Origin: Escherichia coli
GTDB taxonomy: Bacteria > Pseudomonadota > Gammaproteobacteria > Enterobacterales > Enterobacteriaceae
DNA: 64,000 bases
Assembly: GCF_050920415.1 (NCBI RefSeq)
Contig: NZ_CP169309.1
Strand: one strand, 5' to 3'
In this document: positions 37,189 through 56,080 of the stretch, piece by piece
Numbering within the stretch: position 1 is the stretch's first letter
Layout of the letters: each line of letters begins with the position of its first letter
Program-made: the position numbers and the translations under genes
The notes under the pieces: model-generated
The model's database searches: none
What the model was told of the DNA's origin: nothing
The model's input: only the letters and a program-made list of their open reading frames with translations

Positions 37189-37203
37189 TTTTTACCCAGA
37201 CAT

Positions 37204-37309
37204 AAAAAAAACCCGGCATAGGGGACCGGGAAGAGGATAGTCTGCCGTCTCCAGACTAATAAACCGTTATAACACTCCCTGTTGGCACGGGAAACTTTGT
37301 GCTCTCAGT
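37204..37309 (-). ncRNA. gadY: GadY small RNA, antisense to the gadX 3' end
   Basis: Reverse complement begins actgagagcacaaagtttcccgtgcc and ends in a poly-U terminator (A-run 37204-37211 on plus). Ends are approximate. Confidence 0.6.
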
Positions 37310-37555
37310 AAGTTAAATATAACTTTTACTGGAGATAAGATCAGCCATTTTTTTATAAACATAAGCTATGCGCTGTGTGAAAATATATTCTTCTTGCATT
37401 TTCTTATTATCAATTAACTGTTATGTCAAACTACTTTTTGGATAACTTTTGGTCCTACCAAATATGGCAGTTTATGCACGAAGAAGCGGTCTGGCATCAT
37501 TTCATTAGTATACTGAAATTGAAATAATCGCAGTAATGAAATATAAGGGATAGTC

Positions 37556-42942: not shown

Positions 42943-43280
42943 TTTAGTCCCTGAAAATTCTTGAGATATAACGGTTCTTTAAATTGCGCGCGAGGAGAGG
43001 TATGAGGGATTTACAGACCAGCGGCATAGTGGGGTTGTCAGCCAGTAAGATGGGATGCAAGCACAGTGATCGACATGGTGAGGTCAACGACAAAAAAAAT
43101 GTTGCCGTTCTGCCAACAGTTCCTGCCAGCATTCGGGCAACGAAGGGTTCTACTGGTGGATACACATACCAGGGGAATAAAGTCGTTTTCGCCTCTCCTT
43201 TAGTCATCACCGGGGATAATGAAATCAGCATCTGCATCCCTCTTCATGCCTGCCATCATTTTCAGTTAATTATGTCCTGA

Positions 43281-53495: not shown

Positions 53496-53849
53496 TTAAC
53501 TACAAATATTCTTACTGTCTGCGGAACAATTTTGTCTGGCGAGGTTACGGACAATCACCTGAACCTTTTCCTGTTCGCATCGCCAGGCCTGCTCAATAAT
53601 TTTCGCCGCCCATGCTGGAATATGCGGCGATAAACGGTAATGAACCCACTTTCCTTGCTTGCGGTCCAGCAATAGCCCACTTTCACGCAGTAATGCCAGA
53701 TGGCGGGAGATCTTGGGCTGCGACTGATCGAGGGCAGTGCACAGATCGCAGACGCATAACTCTCCCAGTTCGCTGAGCAGTAAAACGATGCCCAGACGGG
53801 TTTCATCGGCAAGAATTTTGAAGAGTTGGATGGGTAACAGAAATGACAT
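53496..53849 (-). CDS. arsR: Arsenical resistance operon repressor ArsR
   Basis: 117 aa with HTH and ELCVCDLC metalloid-binding motif. Confidence 0.93.
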   Translation of the reverse strand: MSFLLPIQLFKILADETRLGIVLLLSELGELCVCDLCTALDQSQPKISRHLALLRESGLLLDRKQGKWVHYRLSPHIPAWAAKIIEQAWRCEQEKVQVIVRNLARQNCSADSKNICS

Positions 53850-54000
53850 ATTGCGCTCCTGATTGTTGCACTTAGTGTCTCTCTTCGAAGCGGATAAGTC
53901 AAAAACATATATGTTTTAACGAATGCATAAGTGCAAAAGTAAGTAATAGGTGTGAATTTTGAGTTGGGTATTCATTTGAAAGGAAGGCTGAATCAGGATG

Positions 54001-54083
54001 TAAAAAAACCGACTTTGCGTCGGTTTTTTACTCTTCAGCCAGAGTTGGTGGCTCTGGCTGGAGTGAGAATGCCCACATCTAAC
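54001..54083 (-). ncRNA. agrB: AgrB small RNA (antisense regulator of dinQ)
   Basis: Repeat unit with terminator hairpin aaaaaaaccgactttgcgtcggtttttt at 54002-54030; segment complementary to the dinQ 5' region; spacing to arsR matches K-12 as I recall. Ends are approximate. Confidence 0.5.
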
Positions 54084-54234
54084 GGTTCAATACTATTAGC
54101 CAGTGGCTAACATTGCAAGCGTTAGCGATTTCTTCAGCTGGCGAAGGGACAGTTTGCTATACATGGTGGTGAAAGAGGATTGATATACTTTCATCGGGTC
54201 GCTGCCGTACCAAGCCTTGTCCGAATCCGGACGT

Positions 54235-54319
54235 AAAAAAACCGACTTACGTCGGTTTTTTTACTCTTCAGCCCTGAGTTGGTGGCCCTGGCTGGAGTGA
54301 GATAGCCATCATCTAACAC
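54235..54319 (-). ncRNA. agrA: AgrA small RNA (paralog of agrB)
   Basis: Second copy of the same unit, with hairpin at 54234-54262. Ends are approximate. Confidence 0.5.
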
Positions 54320-54379
54320 ATCAATGCTAATACCATACTGAAACTATTGCAAGGACATGCTGGTTTTATAACCCGCAAG

Positions 54380-54399
54380 TACTGTATGATTATCCAGTT
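54380..54399 (+). promoter_or_regulatory. LexA (SOS) box in the dinQ promoter region
   Basis: tactgtatgattatccagtt = CTGT-N8-CCAG, one mismatch from the CTGT-N8-ACAG consensus. Confidence 0.5.
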
Positions 54400-54590
54400 G
54401 GCTCTGAGGCATTTTCACTCTGGCAATGCGCATAAACGCTTTCAAAGTCCTGATCAGTGGTACGGGTGGTGCCGTTAACTGATGCTCTGGCCGGAGTGAG
54501 ATAGTCGTCATCTAACAATGAGGCATGCGCCGTGACAGGCAGTGGATGAGTAAGCGGATGCATTCTCACTCCATCGCATGGAGAAAACGG

Positions 54591-54674
54591 GTGATTGATA
54601 AAGCAATCATCGTTCTTGGGGCGTTAATTGCGCTGCTGGAACTGATCCGCTTCCTGCTTCAGCTTCTGAACTGA
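54591..54674 (+). CDS. dinQ: DinQ type I toxin, 27-aa membrane peptide (GTG start)
   Basis: GTG at 54591; translation (M)IDKAIIVLGALIALLELIRFLLQLLN; single TM helix; below the ORF-track length threshold. Confidence 0.65.
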   Translation: MIDKAIIVLGALIALLELIRFLLQLLN

Positions 54675-54727
54675 TAGCGGAAACGTAACTAAGGGCAAAG
54701 AGCACACCACTCTTTGCCCTTTAACAT

Positions 54728-56080
54728 TTAACGCATGGTAACGAACTCTTCTGCCGCCGTTGGGTGAATGGCGACGGTATTGTCGAAGTCTTTTTTGGTT
54801 GCGCCCATCTTCAGCGCCACTGCGAAGCCCTGCAACATTTCATCCATACCAAAGCCAATGCCATGAATACCGACAATCTTCTCTTCCGGTCCAACGCACA
54901 CCAGCTTCATGCGGCACGGCTGGCGGTGAGTGGTGACGGCGGTATACATCGCGGTGAAAGAGGATTTATACACTTTCACCTGATCGTCGCCGTATTGCTC
55001 GCGCGCCTGCGGTTCCGTTAAACCAACAGTCCCAATCGGCGGATGGCTGAAGACCACGGTCGGAATATTGCTGTAATCCAGATGCTCATCCGGCTTGTTA
55101 TTAAACAGGCGTTCAGAGAGGCGGCGGCCTGCTGCAACTGCCACCGGTGTCAGTTCCACTGCGCCCGTGTTATCGCCCACCGCGTAAATACCTTCAACGC
55201 TGGTATTTTGATATTTATCGACGACGATATAGCCTTTTTCGTTGGTTTTTACGCCAGCGGCTTCGAGGTTAATGTTGTCATTGGCAGGCTCGCGACCAAT
55301 CGCCCAAATCAGGCAATCCACCGTTTCACTGCGACCATCTTCCAGCTCCAGCGTCAGGCTGCCATCGGCATTTTTCACTACCGCTTTCGGGATGGCGTTG
55401 GTGTGCAACTGCGGACCTTCGGCGTTCATCACTTCGACCAGCGTTTCAGAGATCATCGGGTCGAAGCTGCGCAGCGGCGCATGTTTACGAACAAACAGAT
55501 GCGTTTTCGCGCCGAGGCCGTTAATCACGCCCGCCAGTTCAACGGCGATGTAACCCGCGCCAACAACCGCTACACGCTCTGGCAAAGCAGGAAGGGCGAA
55601 GAAGCCATCGGAATCAATACCGTATTCCACGCCCGGAATATCCGGGTGGCTCGGGCGACCGCCGGTGGCGATCAGGATATGATCGGCCGTGATGGTTTCG
55701 CCGTTTACTTCAATTGTTTTGGCATCAACGAAGCGGGCAAAGCCTTTGATTACATCAACGTTATTTTTACCGAGCACGTTTTCATAGGAGGTATGAATAC
55801 GGTCGATATAGGCGGTACGGCTGGCGATCAACGTTTCCCAGTTGAACTTATTGATGGTGGTATCGAAACCATAATCCGGGCCGTACATGTGGATCGCTTC
55901 ACGGATTTGCGCCGCGTGCCACATCACTTTTTTCGGCACGCAGCCAACATTCACGCAGGTGCCGCCCAGTTCTTTGGCTTCAATCAGCGCGCATTTCTGA
56001 CCGTACATAGCCGCGCGGTTGATGGAGGCGATACCGCCGCTGCCGCCGCCGATGGCGATGTAATCATAGTGTTTAGTCAT
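54728..56080 (-). CDS. gor: Glutathione reductase Gor
   Basis: 450 aa; FAD motif GGGSGG; redox-active CVNVGC. Confidence 0.95.

Follow-up and report, generated by a model that had tools for sequence, protein, structure and literature searches.

In Escherichia coli K-12, the dinQ-agrAB locus is a type I toxin-antitoxin (TA) system in which the toxin gene, dinQ, is repressed by LexA and its primary transcript is inert (PMC3567139, PMC5066626). A +44 species of the message is translated from a GTG start codon, demonstrated experimentally (PMC3567139), to produce a toxic peptide of the inner membrane, which causes depolarisation and a fall in ATP (PMC3567139, PMC5066626). The antisense RNA AgrB pairs with G88-A119 of the message, re-closes a hairpin that holds the SD and triggers RNase III cleavage, and it is loss of agrB, not of agrA, that brings about dinQ-dependent UV sensitivity (PMC3567139, PMC5066626). 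Toxicity, +44 processing, RNase III cleavage and the UV phenotype have been demonstrated for K-12/AB1157 only, and both primary papers (Weel-Sneve et al. 2013, PMC3567139; Kristiansen et al. 2016, PMC5066626) cover K-12 only, calling the matches in E. coli and Shigella 'almost 100% similar'.

Several other systems share parts of this design. The tisB/istR-1 system, an SOS-induced type I TA system of E. coli, resembles dinQ in several respects (PMC5066626): its toxin gene is repressed by LexA, its primary transcript is inert until activated by 5' processing (at +42 in tisB and at +44 in dinQ), its sRNA is divergent and non-overlapping, pairs in the 5' UTR and brings about cleavage by RNase III, and its peptide is small, resides in the inner membrane and depolarises it. 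The two nevertheless have no sequence relationship, and tisB possesses a ribosome-standby site and one antitoxin, whereas dinQ possesses an SD-hairpin switch and two paralogous agr copies. The dql genes dqlA and dqlB, found on chromosomes and plasmids of Enterobacteriaceae, have a GGAGTGAGA...ATCTAA segment in the 5' UTR and a peptide similar to that of dinQ (PMC5066626, NCBIfam NF041473), but they lie at other genomic locations, and the simple pattern used detected no LexA-like box upstream of them.

The DNA analysed here is a stretch of 64 kb from E. coli, hereafter the window, which carries an ldr/rdl array (592-2263) in addition to a dinQ locus. The array had been noticed in the original prediction and is real, with four Rfam rdlD matches at 592-2107. 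Like dinQ, ldr/rdl combines a small hydrophobic toxin with an antisense sRNA and occurs in tandem copies, but it belongs to the Rfam rdlD family (RF01813) and has an overlapping cis-antisense arrangement. The ldr/rdl systems are not known to be SOS regulated.

The dinQ gene between arsR and gor

Positions 53850-54727 of the window are the E. coli arsR-gor intergenic region, bounded on the left by arsR (53496-53849, - strand) and on the right by gor (54728-56080, - strand), which is the location of the DinQ/AgrB family in Escherichia. The gene order, arsB-arsR-(agr, agr, dinQ)-gor-rlmJ, is the same in K-12 and in strain MFDS1022581, and the likeness to the K-12 locus extends from this position and the three-repeat architecture to the DinQ peptide, the LexA operator, leader elements 1-4 and the sRNA fold. 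The identification of dinQ/agrAB, made from the sequence in the original prediction, is borne out by the arsR-gor synteny, by matches to Rfam and NCBIfam models and by a LexA box identical to that of K-12; the alignment to K-12 dinQ, agrA and agrB that had been proposed as a check gives ~95% column identity over the arsR-gor interval. The locus is already described in E. coli, its mechanism is published, and in the syntenic interval of K-12 MG1655 RefSeq annotates dinQ (b4613, 84 nt), agrA (b4712) and agrB (b4713). The locus itself thus adds nothing new, and the unusual point is that the sRNA best matching the toxin message is the copy considered inactive in K-12. Taken together, the sequence features described below make it very probable that the interval is an intact chromosomal dinQ-agrAB type I TA locus with a K-12-like mechanism, in which the dinQ-proximal agr copy would act as the cognate antitoxin.

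Among 5426 complete E. coli genomes, 5422 match the 881-bp interval, every time on the chromosome, and strain MFDS1022581 is the only one to match it at 100% identity; there, PGAP annotates dinQ under the same protein accession, WP_001295215.1. The interval had been described as free of ORF-track annotation, and it does lack any ORF of at least 60 aa between 53909 and 54727, the longest being one of 59 aa on the - strand. This ORF (54390-54569, -) is regarded as spurious, as it is antisense to the dinQ leader and unannotated in the identical strain MFDS1022581. In some genomes, an equivalent of the 59-aa ORF is labelled 'hypothetical protein' by PGAP. The dinQ locus is a practical reminder that length-filtered ORF tracks overlook type I toxins, and the agr sRNAs are left unannotated by PGAP in most genomes.

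The toxin gene (54591-54674, + strand) corresponds to the 27-codon, GTG-initiated ORF with a single-TM product that had been picked out from the sequence, and consists of 27 codons and a stop, running from GTG at 54591 to TGA at 54674 and nested in a 49-codon ATG ORF (54525-54674). It encodes VIDKAIIVLGALIALLELIRFLLQLLN, a single-TM toxin peptide with a GRAVY of 1.79 and AIIVLGALIALLELIRFLL as its top 19-aa hydrophobic window, and has the same sequence as K-12 DinQ. With 54 bits against a cutoff of 30 (E 1.4e-14), it passes the NCBIfam toxin_DinQ equivalog NF041472, as a toxin of this family should, whereas the DqlB model NF041473 gives only 14.9 bits against a cutoff of 35, and the peptide is therefore DinQ proper and not a Dql paralogue. 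No Pfam family matches it; NCBIfam alone does. Downstream of the gene, an inverted repeat at 54691-54721, with 12-nt arms that are 100% complementary, forms a bidirectional terminator hairpin common to dinQ (+) and gor (-), which was called on the - strand by the terminator scan; in K-12, the dinQ terminator has been placed just beyond the gor stop (PMC3567139). Relative to K-12, the stem of this hairpin has been kept by a compensatory A-T / T-A change at 54697/54715.

Upstream of the gene, the LexA-box-like site that had been noted at 54380-54399 (+) reads TACTGTATGATTATCCAGTT, base for base the K-12 operator, and overlaps both the dinQ -10 hexamer TATGAT (54385-54390) and the +1 position (54397). 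A LexA pattern of 15 specified bases, derived from the matches of this same site to the consensus, has no other match in the 64 kb, with 0.06 expected by chance. A search for the perfect LexA palindrome TACTGTATATATATACAGTA with up to three mismatches found no match, and the box at 54380-54399 has five mismatches. The heterology index of the K-12 dinQ operator is 4.83 (PMC3567139). A LexA operator is a feature of the DinQ/AgrB family, and on sequence alone the site is a predicted SOS operator.

When K-12 numbering (PMC5066626) is mapped onto the window through the alignment, the primary dinQ transcript of ~330 nt occupies 54397-54727 (+), with +1 at 54397 and the processing site, +44, at 54440. 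The leader contains element 1 at 54412-54424, element 2 at 54490-54502, element 3 at 54563-54574, and element 4 with the SD GGAG at 54578-54583; elements 1, 3 and 4 agree with K-12 in every base, and the single difference in element 2 is at its terminal base (G106U). In the MFE structure of the +1 leader computed with RNAfold, elements 1 and 2 form a duplex and the SD is held in hairpin 3:4, while in that of the +44 leader element 2 is paired to element 3. These predicted folds, with the four-element 5' UTR characteristic of the family, agree with the published dinQ switch model, although one detail counts against such agreement, namely that in the +44 MFE structure predicted for the window allele the SD forms weak pairs with CUCU in the target region and is not fully open.

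Sequence conservation suggests that the K-12 mechanism may be carried over to the window locus. LexA, acting at the operator (54380-54399), would repress the dinQ promoter, and DNA damage would lead to a ~330-nt transcript from 54397 that should be translationally inert, because with elements 1 and 2 paired the SD stays shut in hairpin 3:4. Once the first 43 nt are removed, element 2 would be free to pair with element 3 and so open the SD, whereupon the 27-aa inner-membrane DinQ could be made from the GTG at 54591, depolarising the membrane and lowering ATP.

The agr repeats and their pairing with the dinQ leader

The interval had been reported to hold two direct repeats of roughly 85 bp. Two repeats are present, but the size given applies to the sRNA gene of 83-84 nt within each of them, the DNA repeat itself being ~109 bp. 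A repeat search found the long direct repeats at 53990-54098 and 54223-54332, with 82% identity and one 1-nt indel, and also a three-member family of 34-nt repeats at 54051-54084, 54285-54318 and 54484-54517. The last of these is the third related segment that had been seen in the dinQ leader; it is 88% identical to 54285-54318, lies 74 nt upstream of the GTG, and on the basis of the repeat family and the pairing analysis is the putative antisense target in the dinQ 5' UTR (54484-54517, +). Each long repeat has the strong hairpin ascribed to it, AAAAAAACCGAC-loop-GTCGGTTTTTT, located at 54002-54029 and 54235-54262. Both hairpins are perfect, with the form A-run/CCGAC...GTCGG/T-run, and each starts its repeat on the + strand and ends it on the - strand, which is the sRNA strand, as expected of a terminator.

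Two full-length sRNA genes of the AgrB family, both on the - strand, lie within these repeats. The distal, arsR-proximal gene (54000-54082) matches Rfam RF02891 AgrB over the full model (1-84) with 90 bits, and by position and flanks is the orthologue of K-12 agrB; the dinQ-proximal gene (54233-54316) matches the same model with 83.6 bits and by position and flanks is the orthologue of K-12 agrA. Both scores are far above the gathering score of 40 bits, and with E-values of 8e-16 and 2e-14, respectively, the agr repeats are not due to chance. Matches to AgrB on the + strand (26.5 and 23 bits) and to Spy779816 were rejected, as they fall below the gathering score and stem from the palindromic terminator hairpins. 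The antitoxin of the DinQ/AgrB family is an AgrB-family sRNA of ~84 nt, divergent from the toxin gene, upstream of it and non-overlapping with it, and both copies conform to this description.

The two genes are organised alike. The distal sRNA has its 5' end, TTAGAT, at 54082, a 31-nt antisense segment at 54052-54082 and a variable core at 54069-54076 that reads ATGCCCAC in the sense orientation. Its Rho-independent terminator hairpin (54002-54029, -) is indicated by the sequence, by the terminal stem-loop of the Rfam alignment and by RNAfold of the sRNA, and a putative sigma-70 promoter (54090-54118, -), read from the sequence and with hexamers conserved with K-12, would comprise a -35 TTGCAA (54113-54118), a spacer of 17 nt and a -10 TAGTAT (54090-54095) separated by 7 nt from the 5' end. 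The proximal sRNA has its antisense segment at 54286-54316 and the core TAGCCATC at 54303-54310, which is unchanged from K-12; indeed, its first 25 nt are identical to K-12 AgrA. Its terminator hairpin (54235-54262, -), an inverted repeat with 14-nt arms that are 100% complementary, is likewise present in the Rfam alignment, and its putative promoter (54324-54352, -), also read from the sequence and with both hexamers equal to those of K-12, would comprise a -35 TTGCAA (54347-54352), a spacer of 17 nt and a -10 TAGCAT (54324-54329), with 7 nt to the TTAGAT 5' end. K-12 agrA and agrB have been reported to have -10 and -35 sequences that resemble the consensus (PMC3567139). The promoter/terminator scan did not call the agr and dinQ promoters, which have 8/12 hexamer matches against a threshold of 9/12. 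The lone promoter-like match returned by the scan, at 54418-54389 (-), is at chance level (1 found versus 1.2 expected) and was disregarded.

For the pairing analysis, the antisense segment was defined as 31 nt, including an 8-nt core that varies among the three repeats and among strains; in the dinQ target, this hypervariable core is TAGTCGTC, at 54502-54509. Extended complementarity of ~31-34 nt around element 2, which is typical of the DinQ/AgrB family, is present, and the better partner of the dinQ target is the proximal copy. Here, 27 of the 31 positions are identical and three more form G.U pairs, so that 30/31 are paired in a predicted duplex of -52.1 kcal/mol, as against 25 identical positions and one G.U pair for the distal copy (26/31 paired, -40.4 kcal/mol), whose five unpaired positions cluster in the core. 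Cofolding of the whole sRNA with the +44 leader gives a ddG of -42.0 for the proximal copy and -17.5 for the distal one. In K-12 the order is the opposite: the distal AgrB has the core GAGTTCTT against an identical target core (30/31, -53.6 kcal/mol; cofold ddG -39.5), while the proximal AgrA sets TAGCCATC against GAGTTCTT (-38.1 kcal/mol; cofold ddG -25.3). Two of the three cores thus differ between the strains, with TAGTCGTC here in place of the K-12 GAGTTCTT in the dinQ target, and ATGCCCAC here in place of GAGTTCTT in the distal copy, and these changes shift the predicted cognate partner from the agrB to the agrA position.

The original prediction that agrA and agrB lie here as antisense RNAs therefore holds for the presence of both copies, but probably not for the roles known from K-12, since the complementarity is reversed in this strain. 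From these comparisons, we infer that the cognate antitoxin is the dinQ-proximal copy in the agrA position and that the copy in the agrB position is a mismatched paralogue, the reverse of K-12. Counting against the reversed wiring is that the proximal duplex depends on three G.U pairs, and the thermodynamic predictions take no account of kinetics or of how accessible the seed at the sRNA 5' end is. In the proposed mechanism, a constitutive sRNA of ~84 nt would be transcribed divergently from an upstream repeat and would use the 31-34 nt at its 5' end to pair with the +44 mRNA at 54484-54517, and the resulting duplex would re-close the SD hairpin and lead to cleavage by RNase III. The cognate sRNA of this strain would be the proximal copy at 54233-54316, with that at 54000-54082 as its mismatched paralogue.

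Predicted antitoxin assignment across strains

Both wirings are found among 28 E. coli loci, of which ~20 were sampled down the similarity ranking and the others comprise a few top matches, K-12 and four strains chosen by target allele. By pairing, the distal copy is cognate in 13 strains, with the targets GAGTTCTT, ATGCCCAC or TTGCCCAC, one of these strains possessing three agr copies, and the proximal copy is cognate in eight strains besides the window, with the targets TAGTCGTC, ATGCCATT or ATACCATT. A single agr copy, matching the target, is present in four strains, including ATCC 11775 and FDAARGOS_1297. The remaining three strains, which are ST131-like, carry a promoterless agr::dinQ fusion, in which agr runs at the repeat straight into the dinQ leader, with the loss of both promoters and of the LexA box.

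It is conceivable, if rather unlikely, that both agr copies control dinQ here, through partial redundancy or a division of labour, or that the non-cognate copy has another target. Both copies keep their promoters and terminators in most strains, three copies are found together in one of them, and, in a scan covering a single genome of each species, the two E. whittamii copies were nearly equal in their pairing with the target, at -53.2 and -53.0. Deletion of either agrA or agrB in K-12 raised the level of full-length dinQ RNA, 3-fold for agrA (PMC3567139, PMC5066626), so that 'non-cognate' copies may not be inert. Yet one copy is better than the other by 5-20 kcal/mol in 20 of the 21 two-copy strains sampled, and strains with a single agr copy are common. 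Moreover, K-12 AgrA, with a comparably mismatched core, neither closes the SD nor represses translation of +44 dinQ in vitro (PMC5066626).

The last observation also bears on a less probable alternative, that the K-12 wiring holds here, with the arsR-proximal copy at 54000-54082 as the functional antitoxin and the dinQ-proximal copy as an inactive paralogue. In favour of the arsR-proximal copy are its positional orthology to K-12 agrB, an Rfam score slightly above that of the other copy (90 versus 83.6 bits), and the combination of an intact terminator with an intact putative promoter that has the better -10 (TAGTAT). Its pairing with the target, however, with 5/31 positions unpaired and clustered in the core, a duplex of -40.4 kcal/mol and a ddG of -17.5, is in the range of K-12 AgrA, which is inactive in vitro, and strains with the same target survive with the proximal copy alone. 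In ATCC 11775, the E. coli type strain, and in FDAARGOS_1297, the only copy is the proximal one, with the core TAGCCATC, the target TAGTCGTC and an intact LexA box, which makes TAGCCATC/TAGTCGTC the sole possible TA pair in these strains. That the locus is a decaying, functionless remnant, or that the repeats arose by chance or belong to generic REP-like elements, is most improbable, for although the promoterless fusion in ~15% of complete E. coli genomes (813), found in ST131-like genomes, shows that the locus is dispensable, all elements are intact in the window (both sRNA genes, LexA box, leader elements, SD, K-12-identical ORF and terminator), the CDS is the least diverse part of the interval (0.015), and the dinQ/gor terminator stem has been kept through compensatory change.

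With the proximal copy taken as the predicted cognate antitoxin of this strain, the frequency of such an arrangement can be gauged from the target alleles, which were counted with exact 37-nt queries over the 5426 complete genomes and together account for nearly all of them. The most frequent target is ATGCCATT (1918 genomes), followed by the K-12 type GAGTTCTT (1681), the fusion allele (~813), the window type TAGTCGTC (417), ATACCATT (308) and ATGCCCAC (146-283). Among 19 full-length haplotypes, nucleotide diversity is 0.48 in the dinQ core, 0.37 in the distal core and 0.18 in the proximal core, as compared to 0.03 in the flanking dinQ leader.

Recombination or gene conversion involving the three direct repeats would be in keeping with the deletions, with the duplication and with the sharing of cores. 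On balance, the evidence leans towards an 8-nt patch that is exchanged among the repeats, probably by gene conversion, and towards a cognate antitoxin that switches between the agr paralogues across Escherichia lineages. If so, the K-12 wiring, with AgrB active and AgrA inactive, would be confined to about one third of E. coli genomes, and the functional antitoxin of about half of sequenced E. coli would be the agrA-position copy or the sole copy, an extrapolation from a mapping of alleles to cognate copies that is based on the 28 sampled strains. For the type I TA field such switching would be of modest value, in that the functional labels 'AgrA' and 'AgrB', which are positional and derive from K-12, would be misapplied in many strains. 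The hypervariable patch may also be seen as a natural experiment, in which an antisense specificity determinant co-evolves with its target or is converted together with it. The T1TAdb paper states that AgrA can sit between DinQ and AgrB and that the sRNA is chosen by the better IntaRNA energy, and the pipeline would thus implicitly choose the proximal copy in reversed strains; in the open-access literature, no explicit statement of reversed wiring, the hypervariable patch or the fusion allele was found.

In both E. albertii NBRC 107761 and E. coli E69, the scan of one genome per species also found the TAGTCGTC target accompanied by a copy that is proximal and cognate. Given the target and partner of E. 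albertii, and with the two copies equal in E. whittamii, the agrA-position wiring may be the older one. Beyond Escherichia, Citrobacter has a lone agr-like copy, and dinQ-like leaders occur in Serratia, in Pantoea and in an Enterobacteriaceae MAG, again with one genome scanned per species.

Hypervariable core and the predicted cognate antisense copy

When the window was compared with loci fetched from other genomes (L001-L025 and L059-L062), the 31-nt antisense segment of the dinQ/agrAB toxin-antitoxin locus was found to contain a hypervariable 8-nt core, lying at 54069-54076 in the distal agr copy, at 54303-54310 in the proximal copy and at 54502-54509 in the dinQ target. Diversity in the core of the target is 0.48, as against 0.03 for the leader on either side of it. 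In 20 of the 21 sampled strains that have two agr copies, a single copy is clearly the better match to the target, and the position of that copy varies by lineage. On this measure the cognate copy of K-12 is the distal one, and that of the window, of O157:H7 and of the common ATGCCATT type is the proximal one.

Outside the core, the dinQ target reads GGCC (window 54492), as against GGCT in almost all agr copies (window 54059 and 54293), and the toxin-antitoxin duplex of nearly all strains, K-12 included, therefore carries one conserved C.A mismatch. The mismatched dinQ base is part of element 2, the segment of the dinQ leader that pairs with element 1.

Copy number and a promoterless agr::dinQ fusion

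Strains of E. coli carry from one to three agr genes, with size steps of ~231-234 bp, a pattern that unequal recombination among the direct repeats could explain. Single copies are found in L005 and L060, and also in L004 and L059, in which arsRB is deleted; three copies are present in L023. A further arrangement is seen in ST131-like genomes (L003, L024 and L025), whereby arsRB is deleted and a lone agr copy is joined at the repeat straight to the dinQ leader, as at 1448-1610 of L003 (ST131 O25:H4 CU568-3), so that the LexA box and the promoters of both agr and dinQ are lost. Of 5426 complete genomes, 813 carry this fusion allele, and some of the ST131-like fusion genomes have in addition an L15Q change in DinQ or an extra 7-nt deletion.

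Downstream of dinQ, the terminator shared with gor differs from that of K-12 by a compensatory double change (window 54697 and 54715, A-T here and T-A in K-12) that leaves the 12-bp stem perfect. Antisense to the dinQ leader lies a 59-aa ORF (54390-54569, minus strand), the equivalent of which is annotated by PGAP as a 174-nt 'hypothetical protein' in a number of genomes, among them N96 and 2013C-4282, and is left unannotated in the strain that is identical to the window; this ORF is probably an annotation artefact.

Related sequences in other genera and neighboring RNAs

In other genera, too, the leader motif GGAGTGAGA-N8-ATCTAA precedes DinQ-like peptides, as in Serratia sp. H1w (L046, peptide VIDIDKAIIVLGALIALLELIRYVLQLLN), Pantoea gossypiicola (L055, peptide MINLLIIVLRAVVACANALIAVLELIRELID) and an Enterobacteriaceae MAG (L056); a simple pattern search found no LexA-like box there. 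In Citrobacter amalonaticus (L043) the motif follows a terminator hairpin, as in an agr copy, and no dinQ-like ORF was found at that locus. All of these are likely the published dql loci. E. coli-type agr/dinQ sequence was also observed on short contigs of non-Escherichia assemblies, namely a 424-bp contig of Acinetobacter haemolyticus (L028), L029 and a Lachnospiraceae MAG contig (L032), most likely reflecting contamination or mis-binning.

Elsewhere in the window, an ldr/rdl type I toxin-antitoxin array of four copies (592-2263) adjoins bcsG, at a position where K-12 has a single ldrD/rdlD. Its four Rfam rdlD matches lie on the minus strand (592-657, 1075-1140, 1559-1624 and 2042-2107), and its four 35-aa Ldr peptides, MTLAELGMAFWHDLAAPVIAGILASLIVNWLNKRK, are encoded on the plus strand, the third with L29M and the fourth ending in NSLNKWK. 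Gathering-level Rfam matches to GadY (37199-37312, minus strand, 150 bits) and ES205 sRNA (43092-43163, minus strand, 105 bits) indicate that the window covers the acid-fitness-island region, which lies between the ldr array and the ars operon.
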